Origin: Escherichia phage JMPW1
Strand: one strand, 5' to 3'
Length of the DNA stretch: 49,628 nucleotides
Sequence record: NC_041874.1
The translations under genes and the position numbers were made by a program. The first letter of the stretch is position 1; each line of letters begins with the position of its first letter. The notes beneath the pieces were generated by a model. It had not been told where the DNA came from. It ran no database searches and saw only the letters and a list, made by a program, of their open reading frames with translations. Positions 29,304 to 49,628 of the stretch are shown piece after piece.

Positions 29304-29310
29304 TATCAAG

Positions 29311-29336: not shown

Positions 29337-29348
29337 GGAGGATTTATT

Positions 29349-30592: not shown

Positions 30593-31116
30593 TTGTATGT
30601 CCTCGTCGTTAGTGTGATTGCATTGTATGTCGCATTTACTTTTATTGCAATAGCACTATTACAATTTTTTCGTGTAACAGGTGTCTATTTTTGTAACCGG
30701 AGCGGGTGTTACAAAATCCACCCCATCCGACCGCAGAGGGATATGATAAAAACTCTATATAATATATATAGATAGATAATATTTAATTTTAGCTTTATAT
30801 ATAATTATTGTTGTGTAACAGTTGTCTATTGTGTAACTGGTGATTTGATTGATTCGTCAAATTTCTATCATATATGTTCAAAATTTAATCAATATGGATT
30901 CTACTTGTAGCTATCTCTGTATTTCTAAGAAAAAGCGGTTACAAGTATTACACAGTAGACATCACATAAAAATAGACTTAAGCCATTGATTCCGTTAATG
31001 CTGGTTGTAACTTGAGCGATATAGACACGCTATTACACACCAATTACATGTATCCGATTGACTAAACGCTGTTAATGGCTATAATGGATTCATCGTAAAC
31101 GAAGGAGATAAACGCA
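30593..31116. promoter_or_regulatory. Divergent AT-rich control region with iteron-like repeats (candidate origin or early control region)
   Basis: No convincing ORF; direct repeats GTGTAACAG(G/T)TGTCTATT at 30672-30689 and 30813-30830; CTATATAATATATATAG at 30755-30771; several TTACACA motifs. Confidence 0.5.
31058..31085 (+). promoter_or_regulatory. Sigma70-type promoter TTGACT-16 bp-TATAAT for recombination operon
   Basis: -35 31058-31063, -10 31080-31085. Confidence 0.55.
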
Positions 31117-32181: not shown

Positions 32182-32255
32182 ACGGCACAAATAGCTAAAC
32201 AAATAATTAATGAGGTGTTATAATGCACCTCATACACCAATCAGGAGAAGTTAAG

Positions 32256-32903: not shown

Positions 32904-32948
32904 CCATCAGGGCGGCTTCGGTCGCCCATAAATTTTAGGAGAGAAATA

Positions 32949-33365
32949 ATGCATATTATCACTGGCGAGATCCGCAAAGAACCTAAGATTCTTGAACGTA
33001 ACGGCGGCAATACTTATATCATCGAACTGGCAGAAAGCTATAAGCCTCGCGATGGCGATCGTGAATACACCAACTACACATTCTTTTTTAGCGATGGTGG
33101 AAAGCCTGGCCTTGCTGACTGGTATCGTGAAGCGTTCCAGGTTGGTCGCGTAGTATCAGTGTCGTGCGAAACTCTGAAAATCTCATCCCGTGAGCACAAC
33201 GGAACTGTTTACAATTCATTGCAGGCCGCTGATTTTCCTAAGCTGGTATTCAGTCAGCGAGGACAAAGCAATCAACAACAGCGATCGCCTCAGCAACAAC
33301 AGCGAACTCAACAACAACCACAACCGAACCATCAGTCAACATTTGACGATGATATCCCATTCTAA
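32949..33365 (+). CDS. ssb: single-stranded DNA-binding protein
   Basis: Gln/Pro-rich linker and acidic C-terminal tail DDDIPF. Confidence 0.8.
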   Translation: MHIITGEIRKEPKILERNGGNTYIIELAESYKPRDGDREYTNYTFFFSDGGKPGLADWYREAFQVGRVVSVSCETLKISSREHNGTVYNSLQAADFPKLVFSQRGQSNQQQRSPQQQQRTQQQPQPNHQSTFDDDIPF

Positions 33366-33368
33366 TAA

Positions 33369-33397
33369 GAAAGCCCCGCATTGCGGGGCTTTTCTTT
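33369..33397. terminator. bidirectional intrinsic terminator
   Basis: Palindrome AGCCCCGCA/TGCGGGGCT flanked by A-run and T-run. Confidence 0.65.
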
Positions 33398-35243: not shown

Positions 35244-35263
35244 AGTATAAACTCCTTAAGTAA

Positions 35264-35301
35264 ATAGCACTAATTGCTAAACGCTGATTTTATCATTGTG
35301 C
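35264..35301 (-). promoter_or_regulatory. Box in leader of tail fibre gene
   Basis: ATAGCACTAATTGCTAAAC 35264-35282 plus GTGCTAT at 35295-35301; minus-strand -10-like GATAAAAT. Confidence 0.45.
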
Positions 35302-35317
35302 TATCCGACTTGCAATG

Positions 35318-35343
35318 GACAATAAAAAACCGCCAGAAGGCGG
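35318..35343 (-). terminator. intrinsic terminator after primase gene
   Basis: CCGCC-TTCTG-GCGG hairpin followed by T-run on minus strand. Confidence 0.5.
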
Positions 35344-36279
35344 TCAGAGTAGGTCACTTGCTGAGAATAACTTGGCTTGCATTCCTGAGCGGTATCCTCC
35401 AGGATTTGGGATGATTATTTTTAATTGTCGGTCGTCTGCCATGTATAAAGTCTCCTTGTCTGAAGGTTCGCACGCAACCCTTACTTCTCGATCCCCTTTA
35501 TATCTGTATGCAACCATTTCCAGATTCTCAGGAGTGAAGCAGGCCCATACCTCTTGCTTTGTGTGAAATGCAATATGCTGAGCATCAATCCAATTAAGGC
35601 ATAAGTAGATCGCTTTTTCTGTTTTACCAGTCACGGCAACCGAGCAACTTGTGTATTTCTTAGCGTAAAATGACTCCCTACCCTCCTCATCAATAATCAA
35701 AATATTACAAAACTCATCATCAAGACCGTCCTCGTGTACAAGTTGACATGGTATGGTGTGAAATACGCTCTCGCCGCCATCCTCGCGACGTTTTACGCCA
35801 ACGTCGAATGATTCAGTAGGTAGAGATTCAAACATGCTTAGAGGTGTGTTTACGCGCTTCTCTGTGCGCTCCATGACTTTCATCACCGCTTCATGATCTG
35901 CCATCATGACATTGACACCAGATACCGGAGTTCGGCGCGCTTTCTTGTTTGCCTTGACGATGTATTCCTGCGGAACTTTTCCGAGAAATCTTCCCAGGAT
36001 ATTTATGCATTCGCTATACGGCATACCAGTTAATTTCATTAGCCACCCGATCCCGGAGTCGTTACCGCATGAGTTGCAGATCGCACCTCCGTCGCCCGGA
36101 GTGTTCAGGTTATCAGTCCAGCGAAAGCGGTCTTTACCTCCGCAGTTAGGGCAAGGTTGGTGCTTCTTATTAAAAACATCATTCGGCAATCCGCAGATTG
36201 ATTGGAAAGCCTCGCGCCATAACCCCTTCATGTACGGCAAAACGTCCTCTTTCTGAAACATCATAAATTCTTCGTTCAC
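35344..36279 (-). CDS. putative DNA primase (zinc-binding)
   Basis: CPNCGGKDRFRW and CNSCGND cysteine motifs; divergent from helicase. Confidence 0.45.
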   Translation of the reverse strand: MNEEFMMFQKEDVLPYMKGLWREAFQSICGLPNDVFNKKHQPCPNCGGKDRFRWTDNLNTPGDGGAICNSCGNDSGIGWLMKLTGMPYSECINILGRFLGKVPQEYIVKANKKARRTPVSGVNVMMADHEAVMKVMERTEKRVNTPLSMFESLPTESFDVGVKRREDGGESVFHTIPCQLVHEDGLDDEFCNILIIDEEGRESFYAKKYTSCSVAVTGKTEKAIYLCLNWIDAQHIAFHTKQEVWACFTPENLEMVAYRYKGDREVRVACEPSDKETLYMADDRQLKIIIPNPGGYRSGMQAKLFSASDLL

Positions 36280-36340
36280 TTCCAGATCTCCAAAATAAAA
36301 AACGCGTAGAAGGATGTTAACCCGCTACGCGTCGTTTGTT

Positions 36341-36793
36341 TTAACTAAAAATGCTATTGGTCGTTCCGATATCTTCCTTCTTCACGACGCGCATAAATTT
36401 CTTGTTCTTGCATCGCTTCTCAAGGCACTTGCCGTTACCGTCAAACTTCAGGTCGAATCGCAACCATGCGGCACGAAATCCTTTGCACCCCTGTCGGCGG
36501 TAAGCGCGATGCGCAGCTTCAGCGCCTTGCCATGAAATCATATTTCGATCTTTCCAGCCTTGCACCGTCTGATTGCTAACTTTTAGAGCCTTTGCGCAGG
36601 CCGCAGGGCCGCCGTAATATTCGATAAGAGCATCAAGTCGCGCTCGCAGTCCGGCGCGTGTTTCTTCTTTATGAATATAGAACCCGCAACGCTGTCGAGG
36701 CTTTTTATCTTTACCGCGCCGTGTTCCGTTGTTACCATTGATGTGACGTTTATCGATTTTACCAGTTGATTCTGCGATACGTTGAATACTCAT
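36341..36793 (-). CDS. putative helix-turn-helix DNA-binding regulator
   Basis: HTH-like AACAKALKVSNQTVQGWKD; basic protein in divergent replication control region. Confidence 0.4.
   Translation of the reverse strand: MSIQRIAESTGKIDKRHINGNNGTRRGKDKKPRQRCGFYIHKEETRAGLRARLDALIEYYGGPAACAKALKVSNQTVQGWKDRNMISWQGAEAAHRAYRRQGCKGFRAAWLRFDLKFDGNGKCLEKRCKNKKFMRVVKKEDIGTTNSIFS
36342..36358 (-). promoter_or_regulatory. Box, minus orientation, upstream of primase
   Basis: Plus-strand TTAACTAAAAATGCTAT; overlaps stop of regulator gene. Confidence 0.4.
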
Positions 36794-36805
36794 CTTGATT
36801 CTCCT

Positions 36806-36861
36806 ATAGCACTTTTTGCTAAAAACGTTTACTTTATGCCGTGTATTATAGCGTAAACGTT
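36806..36861 (+). promoter_or_regulatory. Promoter cassette for helicase operon: box + IR AACGTTTAC/GTAAACGTT
   Basis: Box 36806-36825; IR arms 36824-36832 and 36853-36861 enclosing TATTAT. Confidence 0.55.
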
Positions 36862-36886
36862 ACAACGATTCAAAGGATTAATAGCC

Positions 36887-38905
36887 GTGACAATGAACAT
36901 TAAAAAACAGATTGCGTTACTTGGAGAGGACTACATAAAGCGAACTCAGGAGCGATTCACTGTAGGTGAGGTAGTTCCTTATCCGTATCAGGTTGTTGCT
37001 TACGCCGAGATCGCGAAGCGCTTGTCAAATTATGAGCACCCATTCTTCGTTAAAGCGTCTGTATCCGCAGGCAAGACAATTATTTTCGCTATGGTGGCAA
37101 AGCAGTGTCAGAAAATGGGCTTAAAAATGCTTGTCCTGGCTCGACAGGGTGAGATTGTCGATCAGGATAGCGAAGAGATCGACAACTTCGGGGTAACGAA
37201 CTCCATCTTCTCAGCATCGCTTGGAATCAAGTCCTGCTACTTCCCGATCGTGGTTGGCTCTGAGGGTACGGTTGCAAATGGCCTCGACAATGAGTTGGCT
37301 GATTTTGTCCCGCATGTAATTGGGATCGACGAATGTCACCAGGTGGATTGGGAAGACCTTGCGCAAGCCATCGAGGGTAAGGAAACAATGGAACAGATGA
37401 GGGGCGAGAAAGGGAAAATTATCATGGACGGAGATATTCCCCTGATTGGTAATGATGGAAAACCTTTGCTTGGAACTAAGCGTAGTCAGTACACGATCGT
37501 AATCATGGAAATGATGCGGCGCTGTAAAAAGGTTCACGGGCACGATCTTAGAATATTCGGCATGACGGGATCTGAATTTCGTGGCGTAGTTCCTATTCTG
37601 GTAGAGAATCCGAAAGCATTGGGATTCTGGCGTGAGCGAGTAACTGATATCGACACAAACTATCTGATTGAGTTCGGCTCTGTCGTTCCGACTATATTCG
37701 GATCAACAGACGGAGTTCATTACGATCTGGATAAGTTCAAGGCGTCTAGCGAGGACGGAGTGCAGGACTTTACAGAGAAAGACATGAAGGCTATGGAAGA
37801 TGAGATCCTTCATGATAAATCTCTGACTCAGCGAATCATGCAAATGGTCGCCAAAAAGGCAGAAGAACGCAATGCGGTCTTGATTACATGTGCTGGTGTG
37901 CGCCACTGCAAAGAGGCAGCGGCAGCACTTCCTCCGGGAAGCACCTATGCAATTATTACTGGCGACACAGACAACAAATCGCGCAAGAAGATTCTGGACG
38001 ATGTAAGGGCTGGGAAAATTAAATACACCTTTCAGGTTATGGCGCTCACTACTGGCGTTAACGTTCCAAATTGGGATTTCAGTGTCATACTCCGCAAGAT
38101 AGGGTCGCTCACACTATTGATTCAACTTTTGGGTAGGGGTATGCGTCTGCTTAAATCCTGGCAGGTTGCTGAGGGAATGGTTAAGCAGGACCATCTGGTA
38201 TGGGATTTCGCAGGTACGATGGATGAGTTGGGTCAGCTTTATTTCGATCCGATACTTGAGCAGGCGCAATTCCAAAATCGTTTTGAAAACGGCAAAGATC
38301 CGAAAACATGTCCGAAATGCGGTTGCGTAAATAGCTTCTATGCTCGACGATGCGTTAATGTCATTGATGGTGAACGTTGCGATCATTTCTGGACTTCTCA
38401 AATTTGTGAGGACCAGGTTGACGAGCGCACCGGAAAAATCCTTGTTAAAGGATGCGGTGCAGAGAATGACGTTGTGGCCCGAGTCTGTCGCTGTTGCGAT
38501 GTTTCTCTTGTTGATCCTAACCTTAAGTTATCCGGTAAGGCGTACACTAAGAATGACTGGTACGAGGTCAAGAATTTTGAAGTTACGTTAACCAAAAACC
38601 AAAAGGGTGTGATATACAAATACACACTTATTAATGATGAGGGTGACGAGTTCAAGGCGTATGAAAAATTCTTCCCTGAGTCAGACTCTAAGATTTGCGG
38701 TACGCTATGGAAAACGAAAGGAGTATTACCTCACGTATCAGATCCTAAAATGCGCCGCTACTTTATCGGAATGAAGAACGCCATCAAGATCGTGCAGTAC
38801 GCACATCATATTGCTCACCCGGTGCGCGTAACTCATCGTCGCAACCAGAAGAAAGAAGATATTATCTCACGCAAAGACTTCGGTATGGAGGATATCCCGG
38901 AATGA
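36887..38905 (+). CDS. SF2 DNA helicase (DEAD/DEAH-box type) with C-terminal Cys-rich zinc-binding region
   Basis: Walker A-like SAGKT, DECH box IGIDECHQ, multiple CxxC pairs. Confidence 0.75.
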   Translation: MTMNIKKQIALLGEDYIKRTQERFTVGEVVPYPYQVVAYAEIAKRLSNYEHPFFVKASVSAGKTIIFAMVAKQCQKMGLKMLVLARQGEIVDQDSEEIDNFGVTNSIFSASLGIKSCYFPIVVGSEGTVANGLDNELADFVPHVIGIDECHQVDWEDLAQAIEGKETMEQMRGEKGKIIMDGDIPLIGNDGKPLLGTKRSQYTIVIMEMMRRCKKVHGHDLRIFGMTGSEFRGVVPILVENPKALGFWRERVTDIDTNYLIEFGSVVPTIFGSTDGVHYDLDKFKASSEDGVQDFTEKDMKAMEDEILHDKSLTQRIMQMVAKKAEERNAVLITCAGVRHCKEAAAALPPGSTYAIITGDTDNKSRKKILDDVRAGKIKYTFQVMALTTGVNVPNWDFSVILRKIGSLTLLIQLLGRGMRLLKSWQVAEGMVKQDHLVWDFAGTMDELGQLYFDPILEQAQFQNRFENGKDPKTCPKCGCVNSFYARRCVNVIDGERCDHFWTSQICEDQVDERTGKILVKGCGAENDVVARVCRCCDVSLVDPNLKLSGKAYTKNDWYEVKNFEVTLTKNQKGVIYKYTLINDEGDEFKAYEKFFPESDSKICGTLWKTKGVLPHVSDPKMRRYFIGMKNAIKIVQYAHHIAHPVRVTHRRNQKKEDIISRKDFGMEDIPE

Positions 38906-39318
38906 TTACAGACAAAGGTGATTATTTAGAGTTTTACGAGCGAGATCCCAGCGACACTCGAAAGGAGGACGCTCATCAGGTGGATTGTGTGTCCTGGCTG
39001 AAATACAATTTCCCTCACCTTCTATTTTGGCACACTGTCAATGAAGGTGAAAAAACAATCACATCAGCGCTCAGGGATGAGCAGGCCGGATTACTTAAAG
39101 GAGTGTCGGACTTCGTTATCCTGATTGGTGTTAACTCAAGATACCCGTTTGCAGCAATCGAACTTAAGCGGGTTAATAAGTCAGGCAAAGGAAAGGCGTC
39201 ACCAGTCAGCGACAAGCAAAGGGAATTTCTCAGAAAGGTCATGGAGCGTGGCGGCTTCTCTGCCGTCGCATACGGATTTGAGCAATTCAAGATCGCAATT
39301 TACGAAATGATGAAATAG
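38902..39318 (+). CDS. VRR-NUC domain nuclease
   Basis: D...ELK signature VSDFVILIGVN...AIELK. Confidence 0.55.
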   Translation: MITDKGDYLEFYERDPSDTRKEDAHQVDCVSWLKYNFPHLLFWHTVNEGEKTITSALRDEQAGLLKGVSDFVILIGVNSRYPFAAIELKRVNKSGKGKASPVSDKQREFLRKVMERGGFSAVAYGFEQFKIAIYEMMK

Positions 39319-39370
39319 CACTTTTTGTTAAAACTGCCGGAATGGAATCTGGCATTATTATCTCACCAAC
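39315..39370 (+). promoter_or_regulatory. Promoter cassette: box + IR
   Basis: Box ATAGCACTTTTTGTTAAAAC 39315-39334; IR about 39335-39354; TAG stop of VRR-NUC gene inside box. Confidence 0.5.
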
Positions 39371-39385
39371 ACTAGAGGACTAAAA

Positions 39386-40099
39386 ATGAAAGACTTTAAT
39401 GATATCGAAACTATCGACTTTGCTGAAACTGGTTGCTCATTCACTCGCGAAGCAATAGCGTTTGGCGGTTATTATCAGGCACTAAAAACTCCAACATGCA
39501 AAGAGATTTCAGGCCGTCGATATAAGGGAACCAATACGCCGGATGTTGTTCGTGATTTATGGTCAACCCCGCGCGAGGTTATTGCGTACCTTGAGGGGCG
39601 TTATGGAAAATACGATCTCGACGCTGCGGCAAGCGAAGAAAATAAAGTTTGCGAGAAGTTTTATTCTCAGGAAACAAACTGCTTAAAACGTTGGTGGGGT
39701 AAAAACAAGCATGTATGGTTAAACCCTCCTTATAGTCGACCTGATATATTCGTCAAGAAGGCGATCGAGCAAATGGAGCACAATAATCAGATTGATATTC
39801 TGTTGCCTGCCGATAATTCTACAGCGTGGTTTACTGAGGCGCGACAGCACGCGGCTGAAATCATCTGGATTGAAGCTGACTTGACTGAGGATATTGACGG
39901 CAACAAGTATGCTCGATCCGGACGACTGGCGTTTATATCCGGTGAAACCGGAAAGGCCGTAGATGGTAATAACAAAGGTTCGGTAATTTTTATCATGCGC
40001 GAACTTAAAGATGGTGAGACGCAGCAAACTCACTATATCCCAATCACAAGCATTTTCCCTTCGGTGAAAAACAAGCGCGCAAAAGTGAGGAAAGTATGA
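39386..40099 (+). CDS. dam: DNA N6-adenine methyltransferase (Dam-like)
   Basis: Catalytic NPPY motif (WLNPPYSRPD); size 237 aa. Confidence 0.75.
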   Translation: MKDFNDIETIDFAETGCSFTREAIAFGGYYQALKTPTCKEISGRRYKGTNTPDVVRDLWSTPREVIAYLEGRYGKYDLDAAASEENKVCEKFYSQETNCLKRWWGKNKHVWLNPPYSRPDIFVKKAIEQMEHNNQIDILLPADNSTAWFTEARQHAAEIIWIEADLTEDIDGNKYARSGRLAFISGETGKAVDGNNKGSVIFIMRELKDGETQQTHYIPITSIFPSVKNKRAKVRKV

Positions 40100-40347
40100 T
40101 GAACGAGAAAATGATTCCGGTTAAGTTAACTGATCAAGGTTTATGGCTGCTTTATCGAGCTACCTGCTGCGAAATTATGGAGCGAAACGGATTGACTCAG
40201 GATGTTATTGGTTGCGATCTGTGGGAGTTCACTAGTTCTCTTGATATGTCTTTCGATGAGATAAAAAATGAATACATAGAGAATTGGCCTTCAATCATAC
40301 AGAAAGACGTGGAAGAACTTAAAGCTGATACAATCGTACAGCACTAA
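40096..40347 (+). CDS. hypothetical protein (83 aa)
   Basis: Overlapping start; stop TAA embedded in next box. Confidence 0.5.
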   Translation: MMNEKMIPVKLTDQGLWLLYRATCCEIMERNGLTQDVIGCDLWEFTSSLDMSFDEIKNEYIENWPSIIQKDVEELKADTIVQH

Positions 40348-40381
40348 TTGCTAAAAATACCCGACGAAAGTCGGGTATAGT
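40338..40381 (+). promoter_or_regulatory. Promoter cassette: box + perfect hairpin ACCCGAC-GAAA-GTCGGGT + -10 TATAGT
   Basis: Box 40338-40357; IR 40359-40376; -10 40376-40381. Confidence 0.6.
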
Positions 40382-40413
40382 TATTTCATAGAAACGAAAT
40401 GAGGAATCAGAAG

Positions 40414-40623
40414 ATGGCACGCATTAATGCAAACTTTTTCAATATCGCTCAACAGTCCGCAAAAATGGCTGTTCATATCACTGACAAGAAAGGCGGCAAC
40501 TTTGATTGGGATATTGCTATGAACTTCCTAAAAATGGCTTATTACCTCTGCTCAGTCAAAGAGGTTGAGTGTTTTATTGAAAGCGTGGAGAAACTAACTA
40601 ATGCTGATAAAAAAACAAGGTAA
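40414..40623 (+). CDS. hypothetical protein (69 aa)
   Basis: Start at ATG after RBS GAGGAATCAGAAG. Confidence 0.5.
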   Translation: MARINANFFNIAQQSAKMAVHITDKKGGNFDWDIAMNFLKMAYYLCSVKEVECFIESVEKLTNADKKTR

Positions 40624-40873
40624 ACGCGAGGTTTGGGAACACGCGAAGGAATGTGGGATCTCAGACGATATAGCGCTAATAGCGAAATATTTCGATATAA
40701 AGGATGTTAGCATTATCTCAAACGGCAAGATTTCATTTATGGAAGATATGCCGAGAAAAATGCATAGAGTTCCAGCAACTCCATCACTTGAGTTTTACCG
40801 CGAAGAGGGAAAGAGAATTGAGCGAGAAAGAAAATCCACAAAAAACGGCAAGTCTTCCCGGCTTAAATATTAA
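40601..40873 (+). CDS. hypothetical protein (90 aa)
   Basis: ORF; overlaps next ORF in another frame. Confidence 0.4.
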   Translation: MLIKKQGKREVWEHAKECGISDDIALIAKYFDIKDVSIISNGKISFMEDMPRKMHRVPATPSLEFYREEGKRIERERKSTKNGKSSRLKY

Positions 40874-41105
40874 TGCGGACGAATACCAGGCAATATGGAT
40901 CGGTAAAAAGCAGGTTAAGCAAATTCATTTCTCTGACTGGTTGCCACCTGACTTTGTTAACGTGCTTTGCACTATCGGTATTGAGCAGGAGTTGCATATA
41001 GGTTACTACTCACCTGGCCGAAACAGTATGATGCTTGAGGTTGACGGAAAACTCGTTGAGTTTAAATCTTCAGATCTAGGATTCTGGTTGAAGGCTGTGG
41101 CATGA
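40704..41105 (+). CDS. hypothetical protein (start uncertain; alternative TTG 40818 after RBS AGAGGGA)
   Basis: Long ORF overlapping previous; ATG 40704 or TTG 40818 both possible. Confidence 0.35.
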   Translation: MLALSQTARFHLWKICREKCIEFQQLHHLSFTAKRERELSEKENPQKTASLPGLNINADEYQAIWIGKKQVKQIHFSDWLPPDFVNVLCTIGIEQELHIGYYSPGRNSMMLEVDGKLVEFKSSDLGFWLKAVA

Positions 41106-41183
41106 AACTTTATTTTGCTGTAGTATTAACACCGCTAATTTCATTTTCAGTAATGTATTTCATTATCATGTAAGGATTAAAAT

Positions 41184-42335
41184 ATGTCACAAGCTAAAAT
41201 CACTACCGAGCAACTTGTCGAAGAGCGCATGAACGGCCTTACACTTCGCGAGATCGCGGAAAAGTACGGTATGCATATTCGAACTGTTGAGGCTCGACAC
41301 GCAAAATTGGCAAAAGAAGGCCACTTTCACGGCAATGAGCATGTTGCTAAAAACGTTCCTGAAGGCTTCATGGTAAAAGGCACATCAACAATGATTCGCG
41401 GTGATGGGACTGAGGTCGTGCGATGGGTTAAGACCGATCAGGACCGTGAGAAGATTGCAGCTATGATGGAAGCTGCACGCATTGCATTTTGTGAAGACTT
41501 GCCGCGAGCAAAGCCAACTGAGCTGCTCACATCGCAAGGTCTTACAACCTCTATTGGAAAGCTGGCACTATACCCGGTGTTCGATCTTCACATTGGCGCG
41601 CTTGCTCATAAGCATGAATGTGGAGAGAACTACTCTACCGACGTAGCGGAAAAAGTGCTTAGCGACTTCTTTAATTACGCGATCGATATTGCTCCGAACG
41701 CAGAGAAGGCCGTTCTTTTAATCGGCGGTGACTTCCTTCACTCGGACGGTCTTGATGCTGTTACCCCGGCAAGTGGTCACGTTCTGGATCAGGATTCACG
41801 ATATGCAAAATTGGTGCATGTAGCTATTAGATCTGTTCGTCGCGCTATCGACAAAATGCTACTGAAACACAAAGAAGTCGAGGTCCAGGTTATCGAAGGG
41901 AACCACGATCAGTCTGGGATGATTTGGCTGCGCGCTGCAATGTCGGCATATTATGAAGACGAGCCGCGAGTATTCGTTGACGTTAGTCCTATGATTCTGC
42001 ATAAGACTCGTTGGGGAAATACCTTGTTGGGATACACTCACGGGCACACTATGAAAAAGGCAGAGACTCGACTCGCAGCTATGGCAGCAGATTTCCGCGC
42101 AGATTTTGGTGAAAGCAAATACGTGTACACGCATAGCGGTCACTGGCATCACCAGACAATCACTGAGCACTCACTCGGTATTGATGAGGTTCACGGCCAG
42201 TTAGGCGCGAAAGACGCATACGCAGCACGAGGAGGGTGGCGCTCGTATCGCCAGGCGGCTGTAATTGTTTACGATAAGCAATTTGGGGAAATCGGTCGTT
42301 TCATCTATCGTCCAGAAATGACAGGATCGCACTAA
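41184..42335 (+). CDS. HTH-fused calcineurin-like metallophosphoesterase
   Basis: N-terminal HTH-like LTLREIAEKYGMHIRTVEARH; phosphoesterase motifs FDLH, GGDFLHSD, GNHD, GHWHH. Confidence 0.65.
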   Translation: MSQAKITTEQLVEERMNGLTLREIAEKYGMHIRTVEARHAKLAKEGHFHGNEHVAKNVPEGFMVKGTSTMIRGDGTEVVRWVKTDQDREKIAAMMEAARIAFCEDLPRAKPTELLTSQGLTTSIGKLALYPVFDLHIGALAHKHECGENYSTDVAEKVLSDFFNYAIDIAPNAEKAVLLIGGDFLHSDGLDAVTPASGHVLDQDSRYAKLVHVAIRSVRRAIDKMLLKHKEVEVQVIEGNHDQSGMIWLRAAMSAYYEDEPRVFVDVSPMILHKTRWGNTLLGYTHGHTMKKAETRLAAMAADFRADFGESKYVYTHSGHWHHQTITEHSLGIDEVHGQLGAKDAYAARGGWRSYRQAAVIVYDKQFGEIGRFIYRPEMTGSH

Positions 42336-42369
42336 TTGATAAAAACTCCCGAAGGGATTCGGGCATAGT
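42326..42369 (+). promoter_or_regulatory. Promoter cassette: box variant + IR CCCGAA/TTCGGG + -10 CATAGT
   Basis: Stop TAA of upstream gene inside box; IR 42348-42363. Confidence 0.5.
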
Positions 42370-42398
42370 AACCACATCGAAAACAAAGAGGCTATATC

Positions 42399-42575
42399 AT
42401 GAAGCTAGTTAAGTGCATCCGAAATGATTCCAAAACGCTTCCATTCCGCGTAAATCAGATCTATAGTGTTGGTTATGATTTCGGTGGTGGATTATTTGAG
42501 GTTTACGACGGGAGAGGCTCGGCAATCCATGTTCCTCTGAACGGTCACTACCTGGAATTTATTGAGATAGATTAA
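42399..42575 (+). CDS. small paralog-family protein (58 aa)
   Basis: ATG 42399 after RBS AAGAGG; MKLVKCIRND...VGYDFGGG...VYDGRG matches dispersed family. Confidence 0.5.
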   Translation: MKLVKCIRNDSKTLPFRVNQIYSVGYDFGGGLFEVYDGRGSAIHVPLNGHYLEFIEID

Positions 42576-42693
42576 CAATAGCATTCATCACCTTACAGGC
42601 TGGCATGATTTAGATGCTGGCCTTTTTGCGTTGTGTCAAATAAATTTGAAGGTTAAAATCAACTCACTTGTTCAAAAAATATATGGTGAGATT

Positions 42694-42909
42694 ATGAAAG
42701 AATTTTTAACCGCAGCTACGTCTAGCACGGGCGGGGCTTCATTAGTGGGGGCGGCGACCGGGCAGCTTTATATTGCTGGCGCTACATTCATTTGCTTTCT
42801 GCTTTTTGGTGCTTGGGGCGCATACTGGAAGTATCGTGATAGCAAGGCGATTCAGGAAGCGTTAAACGATGGCGATCTAAATAAGGCACTTAAGATCAGG
42901 GGGAGATAA
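42694..42909 (+). CDS. holin (pinholin-like, two TMDs)
   Basis: 71 aa; Gly/Ala-rich TMD1, hydrophobic TMD2, charged C-terminus; directly upstream of endolysin. Confidence 0.55.
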
Positions 42910-43397
42910 TGAGCTTAAAAAATAACGTTATAGGCGCATCGATCGGGGCTGCTTTGACGTTGACGCCTACCCTGCTGGAACGAATCGAAGGGATAGAATA
43001 CGAGGTGTATTACGATATAGCCGGAGTCCCTACCGTATGCAGCGGAATAACCGGGCCGGACGTCATACCTGGTAAGAAATACACTAAGCGAGAATGCGAT
43101 GCATTGCTGATAAAACATATCGGCGTCGCTCAGCGATACGTTGACAAAAAGGTGAATGTTGATATTCCGGTAACGATGCGCGCGTCACTGTACAGCTTCA
43201 CTTTCAACGTCGGTACTGGCGCGTTCGGATCTTCTACAATGCTTAAGCTAATAAATCAGAGTAAGCACAAGGAAGCGTGCAATCAGTTATGGCGATGGGT
43301 ATACTACTACAACCCAAAAACCAAAAAGCGCGAAGTGTCTAGAGGACTAAAGAACCGACGCGCTGAAGAATACGCGTATTGCGTTAAGGAATTATGA
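42909..43397 (+). CDS. endolysin, lysozyme with N-terminal SAR-like signal-anchor
   Basis: [19 protein letters not shown] and VDIP...RASLYSF.FNVGTG.F resemble phage P21 R lysozyme (from memory); hydrophobic Gly/Ala-rich N-terminus. Confidence 0.8.
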
Positions 43398-43798
43398 TGA
43401 AACTGAAGAAAACGTGCATTGCGATTGCAGTGGCTGTTGGCGTTATTTCCCTATCCGGTTGTTCGACGGCATCTGCCCTGAGCGGTTTAATCGGATCTAA
43501 ACCGGAAGTTACAGCACAAATCGGAGAGGAGAACACAAAGCAATTAGCAGGAGTAACCGCAAAATCCGAAGATAAGCGAGATGTTAAAGTTGAGAAGTCC
43601 AATGTAGGAAAGATTGACTCTTCCTTGAAGAAGTCAATTGAAGTGTCAACCATTAAGGCTAACACGGTTAACGCTGAAAGCATCACAGTAACAAAACCGG
43701 AAAACTGGTACGATGCTATCGTTGGCTGGATTCTCGTTTTTATCGGTCTATTGCTGGTTTATTTTTCACTTCGTAAGGACGAAAAAAAGGAGGCTTAG
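43394..43798 (+). CDS. unimolecular spanin (u-spanin)
   Basis: N-terminal lipoprotein signal with lipobox LSGC plus C-terminal TM segment; overlaps endolysin stop. Confidence 0.6.
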
Positions 43799-43812
43799 CC
43801 TCCTTTGTTATT
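43783..43812. terminator. bidirectional intrinsic terminator between convergent blocks
   Basis: GGAGGCT-T-AGCCTCC stem flanked by A7 and T-rich tracts. Confidence 0.6.
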
Positions 43813-43919
43813 TGTACCTTTTTACGTTAAGTAGTAACTCCCCATCCTGGTCGCAAAGATTATGCTCGCTTTCGTTACTGGCCCTCATTGAAGTGAGCAA
43901 CAGACTCAACAACCCTTGC

Positions 43920-44327
43920 TCAAATTCTTCTTTCGTAAGCTGGAGCCTTGCGCACAATTCGACGTTCCGATCTATCAATGTTTCTACGTTCTCCAAACAA
44001 ATCCTCATCACTCATCTCTCCAATGTGCATCATTTCCCACGTATACCGATTGTTGTAGCCATCAATACACATCAGCTTCATCATTACCGGGCGCTTAATC
44101 TTTCCCTTGCACCAGTAAAACCCATCCCTGCAATCAAGATAACCCTCAGTTACACAGCGTGAGCAAAACTCCTTAGATAGCGCGCTTGTAAATTCACGGC
44201 GAGTCATTCCTGCGGCCTTAGCAAATCGCTCACTTTCCTTGTGGGCGTATATAAATTTCGCTATGTGCTGTCGAGTGTATTTGTCGTAACCTTCGCAGAA
44301 CCTGAACAGATCTAAAAGAAGAAGCAT
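43920..44327 (-). CDS. Cys-rich hypothetical protein (135 aa), possibly zinc-binding
   Basis: Multiple Cys (CEGY, CSRC, C..C); last gene of minus-strand operon. Confidence 0.45.
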   Translation of the reverse strand: MLLLLDLFRFCEGYDKYTRQHIAKFIYAHKESERFAKAAGMTRREFTSALSKEFCSRCVTEGYLDCRDGFYWCKGKIKRPVMMKLMCIDGYNNRYTWEMMHIGEMSDEDLFGERRNIDRSERRIVRKAPAYERRI

Positions 44328-44331
44328 ATTA

Positions 44332-45900
44332 TTAACCCATCAGTCGAGGGTTGATGAAAACAATATCATCAATCCGGCAAGTGTAGTTCATCTCTTCGAG
44401 CGTGATCAGCAGGCTGTCGATTCGCTCAGATACTTTCTGTTGACCGTTGAACGGCGTAACGTTCCGGCACTTTGCAACGATGCTATGAATAGGTGCGCGG
44501 CCTTTGTTCTTCTTCGCGATCTCAGTGATAACATCAATCAGCTTACGAGATTCAGCCTCATCACCTGCATACCCGGCAGCGCTGGCAGATGACAGGTAAG
44601 TCCTGGAAAGCTCATTGAAGATCATGATCGCTTCCTGCATTGTTTCAAGGTCAATCTCACGATTAGATCGGTTCGGTGATTCACCCTCCCAATTCTTGAT
44701 CGTGTGAAGAACTGAAGCAATGCGCAAAGCGTGCTTATCGAACTTACCGAGATGACCGCGTAGCATTGAGTGAGAGTATTTGCCCCCGGCGGCGAAATCA
44801 GGCTCCATCGCCTGGCGAGCAAGGTTTAATTCACGCATAGCGTTACGGCTTACAGAGAGAACGACGTTGTCCTCCTTCATAATGTTGTGCACGAGTCTGT
44901 AATATTTGCTAACCAGTCCGCGATCTACTTCCTTATACAGCGCATCACCATTTTCATCGCAAAGAATACGAGTACCTAAAAGCGGTTCCTCTCGAACCAG
45001 GAGGAAACGCTCAGATACACCGATACCGCGCTGGCCTGCGTCCATGATACCCTTGATTGTTTCATCCTGCGCAATGACGCAGATCGAACCGACCGGGCAA
45101 AGAGATAAGTTGTTGTCCTGATTTGAACGCGCGACCTCCATATGGTTTTTATCCCACGCCTTAAGAATAAGCTCGCTGTTTGATTTCTTATCAGAACCGC
45201 CATAAGTCAGACCAAGCAATGTATTGATTGCCGTTGCTTCATCAGATATTACGGAAAAGTGGCCTTGAACAGCCGCAACTTTCGCAAGACCTTCAGGTGT
45301 AGGATCTGATACCGCGAAAACAATATCAGCCATCTTCTTGATCTTTTCTTCCAGTTTTTCCTTGTCTTCGTACAGAGCCGCCGTCGTGTTACCCTTTGGA
45401 TCGTTTTTTATTTCTTTCTCGACCTGACGTAGCTGACTGGTTAAACGTATGCGCTCCTTTTTGCGCTCTTCATTCAGTCGCTGAATCTCCGCACGCATAG
45501 GTGTAATCGCCGCTGAGTTAATAGCGGACTTACCTGTTGATGGTGGCTGGCTGATTACCATGTAAAGCGCGGTCGGCTGTTCTTCGCCGTGATATTGCAC
45601 CCAAAACTTCCCGAGCATAGCGGCTGAGATGCACCCAATGAAATGAGCGTACGCAGACGAAACAGGGAACTGTACAGACTCAGCCTTTGCCTTTGCATAT
45701 TCGAATACCAGGTTATCGCCACCTAACGAAATCAGCGGGAACTTATCGTTTCCACTGTTGATATCGATCGGATCTTGCCAAAACGAAACTGAATCCCCAT
45801 AGCTGTTTTCACGAATTGCGATCGACACCGGATTAACTCCAGTGCTATTTGCGATCTCAATAATCTGTTGGTAATTCAATTTTGGCTTAATATTAAACAT
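44332..45900 (-). CDS. large hypothetical protein with Walker A-like PPSTGKS motif (about 522 aa)
   Basis: Start moved to ATG 45900 (RBS AAGGAG); ORF-track start 45963 lies inside the box. Confidence 0.5.
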   Translation of the reverse strand: MFNIKPKLNYQQIIEIANSTGVNPVSIAIRENSYGDSVSFWQDPIDINSGNDKFPLISLGGDNLVFEYAKAKAESVQFPVSSAYAHFIGCISAAMLGKFWVQYHGEEQPTALYMVISQPPSTGKSAINSAAITPMRAEIQRLNEERKKERIRLTSQLRQVEKEIKNDPKGNTTAALYEDKEKLEEKIKKMADIVFAVSDPTPEGLAKVAAVQGHFSVISDEATAINTLLGLTYGGSDKKSNSELILKAWDKNHMEVARSNQDNNLSLCPVGSICVIAQDETIKGIMDAGQRGIGVSERFLLVREEPLLGTRILCDENGDALYKEVDRGLVSKYYRLVHNIMKEDNVVLSVSRNAMRELNLARQAMEPDFAAGGKYSHSMLRGHLGKFDKHALRIASVLHTIKNWEGESPNRSNREIDLETMQEAIMIFNELSRTYLSSASAAGYAGDEAESRKLIDVITEIAKKNKGRAPIHSIVAKCRNVTPFNGQQKVSERIDSLLITLEEMNYTCRIDDIVFINPRLMG

Positions 45901-45920
45901 CACAATAAACTCCTTAGTTG

Positions 45921-45974
45921 ACGGTGTGAATGATACACCGCCAATGGTACACGCGTTTTGCAAAAAGTGCTATT
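45921..45974 (-). promoter_or_regulatory. Promoter cassette, minus strand: box + IR CGGTGT/ACACCG
   Basis: Minus-strand box ATAGCACTTTTTGCAAAA (plus 45957-45974); hairpin plus 45921-45945. Confidence 0.5.
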
Positions 45975-45976
45975 GG

Positions 45977-46393
45977 TTATAAGTATTTGGCCTCAAAGGT
46001 TGTGCCATCTGCGATACTAAAACCGATCTCTTCGCGAAATAATGTCCAACGGCATCCGTCCTCATCAAAGATGTAACCAGCTACGCCGCCGAGAGCGCGA
46101 CCGCTTTCTACCTGGTAACGCTTTCCAACTTTGAATGATTTTTTCATCGGGTTGCGATGGTCAAGTCCGGTGCACTTTAGCGTCTTTGTTTTCAACTCGG
46201 TGAATTTCGCGAAGAAGATTTCATCAGTTCCGTGAATCTGTAATTCATCATGCTTTTCAAGTTTTAAATACTTCCCGCATTTTAGTTTTACTTCGCGAGT
46301 ACCATCATAGCGCTCACGACCTTTATACAAATTGTTTACTTCGAATCCTGTGATCTTGTCTGCGGAAGTGCATTTCAGTTTGATGGATTTCAT
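45977..46393 (-). CDS. paralog-family protein, two tandem small domains (138 aa)
   Basis: Repeats containing KCT...F.VG.RY and DEDGC; RBS CCAATCAGGAG. Confidence 0.5.
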   Translation of the reverse strand: MKSIKLKCTSADKITGFEVNNLYKGRERYDGTREVKLKCGKYLKLEKHDELQIHGTDEIFFAKFTELKTKTLKCTGLDHRNPMKKSFKVGKRYQVESGRALGGVAGYIFDEDGCRWTLFREEIGFSIADGTTFEAKYL

Positions 46394-46409
46394 GGCGCTA
46401 GCTCCTGAT

Positions 46410-46473
46410 TGGTTATCTTGAATAAGGCCACTTTATCAAATGACCTTACGGCAATATTAACAAATCGTGCTAT
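46410..46473 (-). promoter_or_regulatory. Promoter cassette, minus strand: box + IR
   Basis: Minus-strand ATAGCACGATTTGTTAA (plus 46455-46473); IR AAGGTCA/TGGCCTT. Confidence 0.5.
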
Positions 46474-46686
46474 TTACCAGGGAATATAATTGTCGTCGTC
46501 CTCATCAATATCATCACCAGGTAACTCGAAGTCTGGATTATATTCGCTTTCTGCGTCCATATCCATATTCCCTAGAGCGTCATCAAGCGTAATTTCTTTA
46601 TACGCAACCTTTATACACCATTCCGCACTAAGCCCAGCATCAAGAGCGGCAAAATAACGAGTCCAGAAATTATCCTGCTCCATCAA
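46474..46686 (-). CDS. small acidic protein with SSB-tail-like C-terminus (70 aa)
   Basis: C-terminus DIDEDDDNYIPW resembles SSB acidic tip (DDDIPF). Confidence 0.45.
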   Translation of the reverse strand: MMEQDNFWTRYFAALDAGLSAEWCIKVAYKEITLDDALGNMDMDAESEYNPDFELPGDDIDEDDDNYIPW

Positions 46687-46911
46687 TCAACCCCATGAAT
46701 TAATGTAAATTGAGTTAGCCTCAAGCGTAGCGCGCACATCCGCATCTGTTGCATTTACTAAGCGCGAGCCTGGCGTGCTGCCGATAACGTTATTACCGTT
46801 ACGAGCCTTAGTTACCGTCATTGAAATAAAACCGGAAGACTTATCCATTTTGATAACTACACGGCCTTTAGCGTTCAGGTGCGTGATGATATTCTCAACT
46901 TTAATGCTCAT
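46687..46911 (-). CDS. hypothetical protein (74 aa)
   Basis: ORF downstream of minus-strand box. Confidence 0.45.
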   Translation of the reverse strand: MSIKVENIITHLNAKGRVVIKMDKSSGFISMTVTKARNGNNVIGSTPGSRLVNATDADVRATLEANSIYINSWG

Positions 46912-46972
46912 TTTTAATTCCTTTGTTTCGTTTGGTGTGGGAGTAATATACCTTACCCCCTATTGTATGTCT

Positions 46973-46990
46973 TTAGCAATTCGTGCTATC
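46973..46990 (-). promoter_or_regulatory. Box, minus orientation
   Basis: Plus-strand TTTAGCAATTCGTGCTAT is reverse complement of ATAGCACGAATTGCTAAA. Confidence 0.5.
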
Positions 46991-47128
46991 AGTACTCAGA
47001 AATTACTTTGCACTCTTTGATTGTTCCACCCAAAACTACTTTCTGCATCATTGCTTTTTGTTGGCTATCGTAAACGCGAACATTTTTTACTCTGTTAAAT
47101 TTGCCAGTATAGAAGGTGTGAATATAAA

Positions 47129-47452
47129 TCATTTTTTACCGTCCCACGTTTGATATGCCGTAACCAGGTTAATGCTGTGGTCGAACTCGTCAACGCTAAG
47201 CGATCCGATTCTAACAAGCTCTTTGTCGTGCTTAATATCAATCATCCGGCTATATGGATGGCCTGGCACATACTTGAACAGTCGTTTGCTGTCGGCAATG
47301 TCTGCGTTGATTCCGTAGAATCGGCCTACCGCCGCCTTAACGCGCTCCATGATGTTTTTTTCGTGGATTGCCGCCGCGTTATTTAGTGCCGCAACCGTGC
47401 TTCCGTTAATCTTCGGTGACTTCGTTGTGATTTTGTAAGTGTGGTTCATCAT
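47129..47452 (-). CDS. hypothetical protein (107 aa)
   Basis: Start trimmed to ATG 47452 after RBS AGGGGGA. Confidence 0.45.
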   Translation of the reverse strand: MMNHTYKITTKSPKINGSTVAALNNAAAIHEKNIMERVKAAVGRFYGINADIADSKRLFKYVPGHPYSRMIDIKHDKELVRIGSLSVDEFDHSINLVTAYQTWDGKK

Positions 47453-47465
47453 TCCCCCTAACCAG

Positions 47466-47666
47466 TCAGGATAGCTTTCGCGCTTCATCAATGATAACAG
47501 GCTCAAGGCGTTCAAGTCGAACGCGGAACGAGTTCATAAATCCTTCGTTGTTCTTCAGTAGTTCGAATGCGTCTGTAGCTTCAATGGCGCTATTCCCCAT
47601 GTAGGCAATTACTTTTTTCTGAGTCTTACGTGAGATCGCCACTACGCGGTAAATATTATCACTCAT
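47466..47666 (-). CDS. hypothetical protein (66 aa)
   Basis: Start trimmed to ATG downstream of upstream gene stop. Confidence 0.4.
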   Translation of the reverse strand: MSDNIYRVVAISRKTQKKVIAYMGNSAIEATDAFELLKNNEGFMNSFRVRLERLEPVIIDEARKLS

Positions 47667-48030
47667 ACAATGCCTCTTTAACACGATCCGCTACACATGA
47701 GTTAACGGTGATTGAATAGTTAGCCACGCCCCATAATGCAATATTGCCAAGCTCGGTACGCATTGATGGATTGTTTAGCTGAATGATTGTCTCGCCAGTA
47801 TCTTTATCGACGAAGCGAGACACGCCAGAATGGTCCACCACGCGCGTTACTCGGTTCACGCACTCCATTGCATCACTTACACCATAATAGGCGGTTAGGG
47901 CGGCTCTCACGGCCTTCTCTTGCTTGTTGTAAATCTTGCGAGCGATGTTCTCGATCGCTACGCTTTCTTTCTCGTCAGTCTGGATTGCCGTGCTGGCTGA
48001 GAAGTCCAGATCTGTGAACTGCTTAAACAT
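47659..48030 (-). CDS. hypothetical protein (123 aa)
   Basis: Start ATG 48030 after RBS GAGGAAATAATC. Confidence 0.45.
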   Translation of the reverse strand: MFKQFTDLDFSASTAIQTDEKESVAIENIARKIYNKQEKAVRAALTAYYGVSDAMECVNRVTRVVDHSGVSRFVDKDTGETIIQLNNPSMRTELGNIALWGVANYSITVNSCVADRVKEALYE

Positions 48031-48055
48031 GATTATTTCCTCGTTTGCTGCTGAT

Positions 48056-48105
48056 GGGATGACTATACCAGCCATCCCGGATGCGCGTTTAGCAAAAAGT
48101 GCTAT
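48056..48105 (-). promoter_or_regulatory. Promoter cassette, minus strand: box + IR GGGATG/CATCCC enclosing extended -10 TGGTATAGT
   Basis: Plus-strand TTAGCAAAAAGTGCTAT 48089-48105; hairpin 48056-48078. Confidence 0.6.
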
Positions 48106-48291
48106 TTAGAATTTTACTTCCTCAACAAGCTCAACCATTTTATAACCCAGGCGATATGAGTCGCCGAACAACAACAGACCCATAAATTCATCGTTGGTTA
48201 TCGACTCCTTACCAACAGTTTTAAGTTCTCCGTTGTGAATCACAGTATCGCCGATCTTGATTTCTGATTTATGCACTAATTTCGTTTTCAT
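48106..48291 (-). CDS. small protein (61 aa), distant paralog-family member
   Basis: ORF; weak similarity to small beta-rich family. Confidence 0.4.
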   Translation of the reverse strand: MKTKLVHKSEIKIGDTVIHNGELKTVGKESITNDEFMGLLLFGDSYRLGYKMVELVEEVKF

Positions 48292-48306
48292 TTGTTAGCC
48301 TGTTAA

Positions 48307-48492
48307 TTAAAAGAACGCTACATAGTTTGCAATACCTTTTGCATCGTCGTTAGGCATCGCCTTGACAGCCAGGTCATAACCAGCCTCTACCTTCTGCTTT
48401 GCTGATTCTTCGTTGTATCCCCAAATAACCAGGATTTTAACTACGTTTTCTTTGTTCAGAACTTTAAGGTATTTAGTGATGCGACGTGCCAT
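48307..48492 (-). CDS. hypothetical small basic protein (61 aa)
   Basis: Start trimmed to ATG after RBS GAGGAAAAACAAA. Confidence 0.4.
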   Translation of the reverse strand: MARRITKYLKVLNKENVVKILVIWGYNEESAKQKVEAGYDLAVKAMPNDDAKGIANYVAFF

Positions 48493-48509
48493 TTTGTTTT
48501 TCCTCAATC

Positions 48510-48570
48510 TCGTTTCGATGAGGTAATTATGCCAAATCGCACCGATCGAGTTTTAACAAAAAGTGCTATT
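48510..48570 (-). promoter_or_regulatory. Promoter cassette, minus strand
   Basis: Plus-strand TTAACAAAAAGTGCTAT 48554-48570; minus-strand -10-like CATAAT downstream. Confidence 0.45.
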
Positions 48571-49257
48571 TGCGATCGCTTTGAAAAATCCACGAGGAGA
48601 TAAGGAACGTATCAGCTTCGTTTTGGCAGACTTGCCGCCCAGCTTGTTTTGCTGTGCAGAGTACCCGTCATGCAGGTTTACAGGCTTCCTTTCTGGCATG
48701 ACAAAGTCGTCCGAAGTCCAAAGACAAGTTTTCTTCGGGTAAGCATCGCGCGGCGCAATATACATCGGGAACCAGGGGTGTGCGTCATTCTCAGGAAGAT
48801 AGCCGCCATACTCCCAGGGATTGAAAGTGTGGTCAGCCTTTCGCCAGGCTGATGACAGGACGCTAACCGGATTCTCAATGATGTAAGTCACACCCAGGCT
48901 ATCACCGATGTTCGCGGCAATCCGGGCGGTGGCAACAGCTTTCTCCTGGAATAGCGGATCACGTTTACGCTTGCTGGCAAAGTGTCGAGCACCACTAACG
49001 GCCAGGTCAGTGCACGGCGGGAAGGCCATAATGAAATCCGGCTTGCCATACACACCCGCGATCGCATCACGTTCGAACGTTTCATCAATGAACACGTTCA
49101 CATACTCAATGTTGGGATGCTCTACCCGGGCATTGTACTTTGCATAATCTCCGTGATCGGCTCCGTCAAAGTTGAAGCACATCACTTTATGACCTTGCTT
49201 TGCCAGTTCATGACCAGCCAGGCCCGAGCCGTCGAATAGTGACCAGATTAATTTCAT
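48553..49257 (-). CDS. compact DNA (cytosine-5)-methyltransferase-like protein (234 aa)
   Basis: Motif I-like LFDGSGLAG, PC motif FPPCTD, ENV-like IIENPV in canonical order; short for a C5-MTase. Confidence 0.5.
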   Translation of the reverse strand: MKLIWSLFDGSGLAGHELAKQGHKVMCFNFDGADHGDYAKYNARVEHPNIEYVNVFIDETFERDAIAGVYGKPDFIMAFPPCTDLAVSGARHFASKRKRDPLFQEKAVATARIAANIGDSLGVTYIIENPVSVLSSAWRKADHTFNPWEYGGYLPENDAHPWFPMYIAPRDAYPKKTCLWTSDDFVMPERKPVNLHDGYSAQQNKLGGKSAKTKLIRSLSPRGFFKAIANSTFC

Positions 49258-49466
49258 TTCGTTACCTCCTGGAAAACAGTTTGTCCGCTATTGGTCAGGA
49301 AGCGCCCGATCTTATTCATTGACCGGAACACGCCGATCTGATTCTGATGATTGTCAGTCGCGAAGTAACCGCCATCAATAAGGTAGATTTCATACACTGA
49401 TTGATTCGTGAAGCTGTCAGTGCTGACGCTAACACATCGTACGGTACATTCAAATTCTGGTTCCAT
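49254..49466 (-). CDS. hypothetical protein (70 aa)
   Basis: ORF with CCAATCAGAGGA RBS, first gene of right-hand minus-strand block. Confidence 0.5.
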   Translation of the reverse strand: MEPEFECTVRCVSVSTDSFTNQSVYEIYLIDGGYFATDNHQNQIGVFRSMNKIGRFLTNSGQTVFQEVTK

Positions 49467-49524
49467 TGCCTGAGTCCTCTGATTGGTTGATGTGATGAAT
49501 CATACCCTGCCGACCTGGCTGAGT

Positions 49525-49543
49525 CGTTAGCAAAAAATGCTAT
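49525..49543 (-). promoter_or_regulatory. Box, minus orientation, upstream of right-hand minus-strand block
   Basis: Plus-strand TTAGCAAAAAATGCTAT. Confidence 0.5.
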
Positions 49544-49589
49544 TCCAATAATTGCTCATTATTCCATCAATAGCGGAATAGGTGGAATA
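49541..49589. repeat. Cluster of four GGAATA/TATTCC hexamers near right genome end
   Basis: TATTCC at 49541 and 49560, GGAATA at 49575 and 49584. Confidence 0.5.
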
Positions 49590-49628
49590 ATTCTGATTGC
49601 GATTGATTGCAAATGATGAAACGTGATT

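Follow-up and report, generated by a model that had tools for sequence, protein, structure and literature searches.

The window analysed here, a stretch of 49,628 nucleotides from Escherichia phage JMPW1 (sequence record NC_041874.1), is that of a T1-like coliphage of the Tunavirus JMPW1 group, and close to its right end lies a leftward-reading gene whose 234-residue product is the subject of this work. A sequence-only reading of the window had singled out this open reading frame (ORF) as a compact C5-cytosine methyltransferase-like gene by virtue of the segments LFDGSGLAG, FPPCTD and IIENPV, and the translation and codons bore out both the ORF and the occurrence of the three segments in the canonical I-IV-VI order (Table 1). 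Given the evidence set out below, the protein is very probably an active, stand-alone (orphan) DNA cytosine-C5 methyltransferase dependent on S-adenosylmethionine (SAM) and belonging to the compact phage 'Dcm-like' family PHROG 757.

Table 1. Features of the putative methyltransferase gene and of the loci discussed with it (window coordinates unless another sequence is named)
Feature	Coordinates	Strand	Remarks
Predicted compact Dcm-like C5-cytosine DNA methyltransferase, coding sequence	48553..49257	minus	234 aa, ATG start, stop codon within the coordinates
Shine-Dalgarno sequence AGGAGG	49265..49270	minus	7 nt 5' of the methyltransferase ATG, read from the DNA letters
Motif I, glycine-rich SAM-binding loop, F8-D-G-S-G12 (LFDGSGLAG = residues 7-15)	49222..49236	minus	From the translation
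Motif IV, catalytic cysteine, F79-P-P-C82-T-D (residues 79-84)	49006..49023	minus	Codons TTC CCG CCG TGC ACT GAC
Motif VI, ENV-type glutamate, I-I-E128-N-P-V (residues 126-131)	48865..48882	minus	ENP variant; codons checked on the DNA
Non-canonical motif VIII region, D171-A-Y-P-K175-K176-T-C-L-W180	48718..48747	minus	From the alignment; strand 177-181 in the model
Short segment at the position of the target-recognition domain, residues 182-216	48610..48714	minus	Includes K-L-G-G-K-S-x-x-T-K; lies between strand 177-181 and the terminal helices
C-terminal element R217-S-L-S-P-R222-G223-F-F-K-A227, motif IX-like or motif X substitute	48577..48609	minus	From conservation and the model
70-aa ORF, upstream member of the same leftward transcription unit	49254..49466	minus	PHROG 16851, function unknown
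Right-end accessory segment without a T1 counterpart	48107..49628	unstranded	Two small ORFs, the methyltransferase gene, the 70-aa ORF and an intergenic region
70-aa protein of PHROG 9085/9323	46474-46686	minus	Also L005 40807-41031 and L001 971-1180
T1-type Dam N6-adenine methyltransferase	39386..40099	plus	PF05869, E=2.2e-68; annotated in phi2013 as DNA N-6-adenine-methyltransferase
Dam / P0209 pair on contig L009	134-697 and 1214-1957		Metagenomic contig

In a leftward unit at the genome's extreme right end the gene forms the second cistron, and its ATG overlaps the stop codon of the preceding 70-aa ORF as ATGA; a scan of 47900-49628 found no sigma-70-like promoter. Conservation of the encoded protein was counted over 231 full-length homologues, and a second alignment held 50 sequences with a mean column identity of 37%. 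The catalytic Cys82 is kept in 224 of the 231 homologues, Glu128 in 227 and Pro130 in 229. Motif I, which hhalign placed on the FAGIGG motif I of Dcm, is degenerate across the family, with a consensus of LFDxTG (G10 in 124/231, G12 in 201/231). In the motif VIII region the 50-sequence alignment shows no variation at D171, Y173, K175, T177 and W180, each of which is found in at least 94% of the 231 (Lys175 in 221, Trp180 in 225). The segment that follows, which may take part in DNA recognition, keeps L206, G207, G208, K209 and T213 in 74-88% of homologues. Beyond it the sole conserved motif-like element of the C-terminus is R217-S-L-[ST]-P-R-G-F, which starts the last helix (222-232) and in which R217 and P221 are each kept in 222 of the 231 and G223 in 224.

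A profile search and a structure prediction were among the checks proposed with the sequence-only reading, and both returned a methyltransferase. The profile search matched PHROG 757, "DNA methyltransferase", at E=2.2e-84 over residues 1-231. Homologues fall into 4834 clusters at E<=0.001 in a collection of 5.8 billion proteins (933 at the 50% level), and tblastn matches occur in 1516 phage records, including phages of Escherichia, Klebsiella, Salmonella and Vibrio. Given a median of 233 aa (interquartile range 226-243) for the lengths of the 270 homologues fetched, the small size of the protein is the normal state of its family and not a truncation, and at about 230 residues the PHROG 757 enzymes would be among the smallest C5-methyltransferases known. 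Longer relatives (284-414 aa), scanned for extra domains, gave no Pfam match. Searched against PDB sequences, the single protein gave only TrwG, which was rejected as a chance match; with the family profile the only match was M.HaeIII (E=0.022, motifs I-IV).

The structure prediction, an AlphaFold2 model built on the 50-sequence alignment, was confident (mean pLDDT 94.1, pTM 0.91) and has the fold of a C5-methyltransferase catalytic domain, with the expected alternation of strands and helices and with terminal helices at 211-218 and 222-232. After the motif VIII strand (177-181) about 50 residues remain, comprising a loop, the K-L-G-G-K-S-x-x-T-K stretch and the R217 element. This agrees with the earlier remark that the protein lacks the length needed for a normal target-recognition domain (TRD) followed by motifs IX-X: some 35-40 residues lie between the motif VIII strand and the last helix, and there is a single C-terminal element. 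In Foldseek the top matches were DNMT3A and DNMT3B only, which fits, since no characterised C5-methyltransferases have smaller target-recognition domains than the DNMT3 enzymes, and the matches in BFVD were family members named "DNA-cytosine methylase". Two uncultured-phage proteins in BFVD, of 1397 and 1126 aa (A0A6J5SE15_1 and A0A6J5NPY6_2), also carry a similar domain (TM ~0.62-0.66, 23-27% identity), joined to helicase-type regions; the helicase/UvrB N-terminal region annotated in one of them suggests that the compact methyltransferase domain has been fused into large multidomain phage proteins.

The case for activity comes from a characterised relative. Phage KarlJaspers (Bas06, MZ501090) carries a 711-bp gene, bas06_0055, annotated "Dcm-like C5 cytosine methyltransferase", whose product aligns with the window protein over 228 residues at 56% identity and 71% similarity (E=9e-89). 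Phage K42 (Drexlerviridae) is 95.4% identical to KarlJaspers/Bas06, and when mutants of K42 escaping retron Ec86 were examined, four of four had lesions in or just upstream of the 711-bp cytosine methyltransferase gene, some of them being a C-to-A substitution that lies 9 bp upstream of where dcm starts (bioRxiv 10.1101/2023.08.16.553469). Expressed alone, K42 dcm was toxic only in cells carrying Ec86, and mass spectrometry coupled to liquid chromatography (LC-MS) found high 5-methylcytosine (5mC) in the multicopy single-stranded DNA (msDNA) with the wild-type K42 enzyme whereas the empty vector and a C82A/E128A/K175A/K176A mutant gave low 5mC (bioRxiv 10.1101/2023.08.16.553469). The residues changed in that mutant, C82, E128, K175 and K176, are all present here at the same residue numbers (FPPC82, IIE128NP, PK175K176T). 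In the same study K175 and K176 were named as substrate-binding by superposition on DNMT3A and proposed as functional equivalents of motif VIII, and the gene was encoded by 34 of 35 Ec86-sensitive phages (bioRxiv 10.1101/2023.08.16.553469). The retron work has since been published (Wang et al., Cell Rep 2024, 43:114857), and later retron papers cite it as established.

The sequence-only reading had left three options open, namely a minimal methyltransferase, a hypermodification enzyme and an inactive relic, and the first of these is the one supported by the PHROG 757 match, by the 56%-identical KarlJaspers protein and by the rise in 5mC that the near-identical K42 enzyme produces. The observation was thus correct, and the biology was already known, since the family is annotated and a relative has a published function; near-identical phage records already label the gene "putative site specific DNA methylase", and other relatives are annotated "DNA methyltransferase" or "DNA cytosine methyltransferase".

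We considered whether the missing recognition domain might be supplied in trans by a partner subunit, as in a split methyltransferase, and rejected this, the flanking ORFs not being homologous between JMPW1 and KarlJaspers: the upstream ORF belongs to PHROG 16851 here and to PHROG 9323/9085 in KarlJaspers, which are unrelated, and the 70-aa ORF is not a conserved partner. That the K42 gene alone is sufficient in vivo also counts against a partner subunit (bioRxiv 10.1101/2023.08.16.553469). Among the 270 relatives there was no fusion of the methyltransferase with the small protein of PHROG 9085/9323. Distant homologues belong to phage replication modules, with SSB, AAA_24 and small genes around them; Pfam recognised no nuclease domain among their neighbours, most of which had no Pfam match at all. 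The window has a PHROG 9085/9323 protein of its own, at another position (Table 1); its C-terminal half is very acidic, and it is 56% identical over 46 residues to the KarlJaspers ORF upstream of the Dcm-like gene. The homologue of this protein in EF3-1 is annotated 'putative cytosine DNA methylase', for which it is far too short, and the annotation was probably carried over from a gene next to it.

By analogy with canonical C5-methyltransferase chemistry, Cys82 of the PC motif would attack C6 of a flipped-out cytosine and Glu128 of the ENP motif would protonate N3, the methyl group of SAM would be transferred to C5, and beta-elimination would then free the enzyme, with Lys175 and Lys176 replacing the arginines of motif VIII. 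The usual TRD of 80-130 residues is cut down to about 35, so that the reading of DNA would have to come from elsewhere, perhaps from the basic catalytic loop (85-101), the K-L-G-G-K-S-x-x-T-K segment and possibly a DNMT3A-like oligomerisation. The gene would be translationally coupled to the preceding ORF in a leftward operon of small genes and, given the position of that operon at the right end, would be expressed early. The enzyme would then methylate phage DNA along with whatever other DNA the cell contains, protection from CCWGG-type restriction being a plausible result; the effect demonstrated for the relative is that msDNA of retron Ec86 (Eco1) is methylated and the abortive-infection system triggered. 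The most likely target is, in our analysis, the inner C of CCWGG.

Several observations weigh against this reading. The protein scores only 12.3 bits against a cut-off of 22 with Pfam PF00145 (E=0.11), a model reached at E<=1 by no more than 8 of 50 diverse family members; an NCBIfam scan assigned no family, and BLASTP against E. coli Dcm gave no significant similarity (E=7.9). The canonical motif VIII, QxRxR, is absent and the invariant D-x-Y-x-K-x-T-x-x-W stands in its place. Attempts to map motifs IX and X failed: one hhalign run placed R-S-L-S-P-R-G-F on residues 270-283 of M.HhaI (TRKLHPRECARVM), which are motif IX, at a non-significant E=0.26, and a second run placed the C-terminal element elsewhere (M.HhaI alone and M.HhaI with Dcm gave E=0.19 and 0.26, neither significant). 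By eye, the element resembles motif IX (RxLTPRE) more closely than motif X (GNSV), and a Pfam scan of ten C-terminal fragments returned nothing relevant.

Further points of the same kind concern function. The link to activity for the JMPW1 allele runs through a protein that is 56% identical. The BASEL paper reports that Drexlerviridae abundantly encode N6-adenine and C5-cytosine methyltransferases, with no simple link between these genes and resistance to restriction. The CCWGG target of the K42 enzyme was adopted from the literature on host Dcm, the sites being unmapped, and the empty-vector control msDNA from dcm+ MG1655 was low in 5mC despite its CCTGG (bioRxiv 10.1101/2023.08.16.553469), from which it follows that the phage enzyme differs from host Dcm either in its activity on msDNA or in specificity. 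E. coli BL21(DE3) was the isolation host of phages IME167, which shares 99.9% identity in this region, and IME18 (MH051912.1, MH051911.1); this strain natively carries Ec86, and induced K42 Dcm is lethal in it (bioRxiv 10.1101/2023.08.16.553469). Either the protection given by native Ec86 is weak, or the JMPW1-type allele triggers it poorly, or the retron is counteracted by the phage.

Given these points, it was reasonable to consider an active C5-methyltransferase with a target other than CCWGG, whether a different short site, a relaxed specificity, or hairpin or single-stranded DNA such as msDNA. Such a target would be a consequence of the TRD being nearly absent, at about 35 residues and with no similarity to the TRD of Dcm/EcoRII; the origin of the CCWGG assignment and the low 5mC of the MG1655 control fit it too, and the preprint authors mention toxicity of the phage Dcm itself (bioRxiv 10.1101/2023.08.16.553469). 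Against it, defence was lost when the CCTGG in the stem of the msDNA was replaced by AATGG, ACTGG or CATGG (bioRxiv 10.1101/2023.08.16.553469).

The composition of the genomes also bears on the question. Under a maximal-order Markov expectation the observed/expected ratio of CCWGG is 0.95 here, 1.03 in KarlJaspers and 0.82 in T1, which is without the gene, so that the site is not avoided; an apparent twofold enrichment over dinucleotide shuffles (100 versus 53) was discarded, as it vanishes under the Markov expectation. Many C-containing 6-bp palindromes are, on the other hand, strongly avoided in the window (AAGCTT 0 against ~17 expected, CTGCAG 0 against 8, GAATTC 1 against 8.7), and CCATGG, CCGCGG, CGGCCG, GAGCTC, GCCGGC, GGTACC and CACGTG have no copies at all. 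CTAG (0.45) and CTTGG/CCAAG (0.49) are also depleted in the window, and CCSGG is depleted in KarlJaspers (0.17). Avoidance of C-containing sites would be less necessary with non-specific cytosine methylation, which argues for a narrow specificity, and palindrome avoidance is similar in KarlJaspers and T1; the genome statistics are weakly compatible with a narrow specificity that covers CCWGG. Moreover, these phages grow on K-12 hosts, and because McrBC of K-12 cuts R-5mC DNA, broad methylation would be expected to harm the phage itself. No base-resolution methylome of the compact phage Dcm-like family turned up in literature searches. On balance we regard a target other than CCWGG as unlikely, though a serious competitor.

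A bolder form of the same thought, which we hold to be rather doubtful, is that the protein is a minimal C5-methyltransferase without a TRD, and possibly without motif X, that reads DNA in an undescribed way and has a specificity differing from CCWGG. Were it so, DNA might be read through DNMT3A-like pairing, or through DNA shape, hairpins or single strands, and this would explain why the phage enzyme triggers retron Ec86 and host Dcm does not.

The hypermodification option of the sequence-only reading can be framed as the transfer of a carboxymethyl group from host carboxy-S-adenosylmethionine (Cx-SAM), as by CmoX, with 5mC as a side product. In CmoX an Arg takes the place of M.HhaI Asn304 and binds the carboxyl of Cx-SAM, E. 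coli makes Cx-SAM that expressed CmoX can use (PMC12783734), and the near-invariant Arg217 and Arg222 lie in the corresponding region here. The alignment, however, did not establish which Arg, if either, matches that of CmoX, and the orthologue raises 5mC by LC-MS. DNMT3A, a SAM-using enzyme, likewise carries Arg where motif X has its Asn. CmoA and CmoY are not annotated among the 79 genes of the near-identical phi2013 genome (a statement about annotation only, the whole window not having been profile-scanned), and the immediate neighbours belong to PHROGs of unknown function, whereas CmoX genes typically adjoin CmoA/CmoY. We therefore consider hypermodification very improbable.

An inactive relic, or pseudoenzyme with remnants of methyltransferase motifs, would account for the failure of the Pfam and NCBIfam models, the degenerate motif I and the non-canonical motifs VIII and X, but besides the catalytic Cys and Glu about 25 further positions are near-invariant at 37% mean column identity, which speaks decisively against a decaying gene; the ORF is full-length, with a strong Shine-Dalgarno sequence and a confident compact fold, and the activity of the orthologue depends on the catalytic residues, so that this last of the three options is scarcely credible. 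Methylation of RNA in place of DNA, as by the tRNA methyltransferase DNMT2, is just as hard to credit, given that DNMT2-type matches score below the DNA enzymes DNMT3B, DNMT3A and M.HhaI and that the orthologue methylated the DNA part of msDNA.

The blastn alignment of the window with phage T1 is confined to 2..48106, over which the two are colinear at 77-96% identity, and tblastn found no homologue of the methyltransferase in the deposited T1 genome; 48107-49628 is therefore an accessory segment, and the methyltransferase an accessory gene within Tunavirus. The small ORFs of this segment lie at 48106-48291 and 48307-48507. Across the methyltransferase region, identity to Escherichia phages IME167, phi2013 and Henu5_2 is 99.9%, and phi2013, classified as Drexlerviridae, Tunavirinae, Tunavirus JMPW1, has a gene map that agrees with the window at an offset of 853 bp. 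The Dam-like gene that had been counted as a second modification gene is indeed a PF05869 Dam (Table 1). On metagenomic contig L009 a PF05869 Dam gene is followed, about 500 bp downstream, by P0209, a distant homologue with 37% identity, so that the pairing of a T1-type Dam with a compact C5 enzyme recurs outside Tunavirus.

If the preferred reading holds, T1-like phages would carry a second DNA mark besides that of Dam, probably directed against CCWGG-type restriction, and the Dcm-like methyltransferase would be the molecule that retron Ec86/Eco1 senses. The value of the family now would be mechanistic, in its site specificity and in the way DNA is read by a methyltransferase that has no TRD.

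Among known enzymes, that of K42/KarlJaspers is alike in belonging to PHROG 757 and to Drexlerviridae, in length (236 versus 234 aa) and in being carried together with Dam; KarlJaspers differs in being a member of Tempevirinae/Hanrivervirus whereas JMPW1 belongs to Tunavirinae, and its gene has another genomic position and other neighbours. E. coli Dcm and M.EcoRII share the chemistry and presumably the target site, and motifs I, IV and VI are colinear (hhalign, E=0.029, over motifs I-VI only), but Dcm, at 472 aa, is extended at its N-terminus and has a complete TRD and canonical motifs VIII-X, and its gene overlaps vsr, of which tblastn with E. coli Vsr found no homologue in the window (best E=0.09). 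By sequence the phage protein has no match among solved C5-methyltransferases, whereas Dcm reaches E=3e-44 with M.HhaI, and on such comparisons 'Dcm-like' is a functional label and not a statement of orthology. M.HhaI itself (PF00145) has a small domain of about 80 residues (194-275), the interval between motifs VIII and IX being ~80-130 residues, followed by motif IX and by the GNSV helix of motif X; in the phage protein, by contrast, only about 50 residues come after motif VIII, and its score is under the PF00145 threshold. CmoX is a 372-residue chain that uses only Cx-SAM and is encoded beside the CmoA and CmoY genes (PMC12783734). The catalytic domains of DNMT3A and DNMT3B show 12-16% identity and a TM-score of ~0.5 to the phage model; these are eukaryotic enzymes with domains of ~280 residues that form dimers or tetramers with DNMT3L and target CpG.

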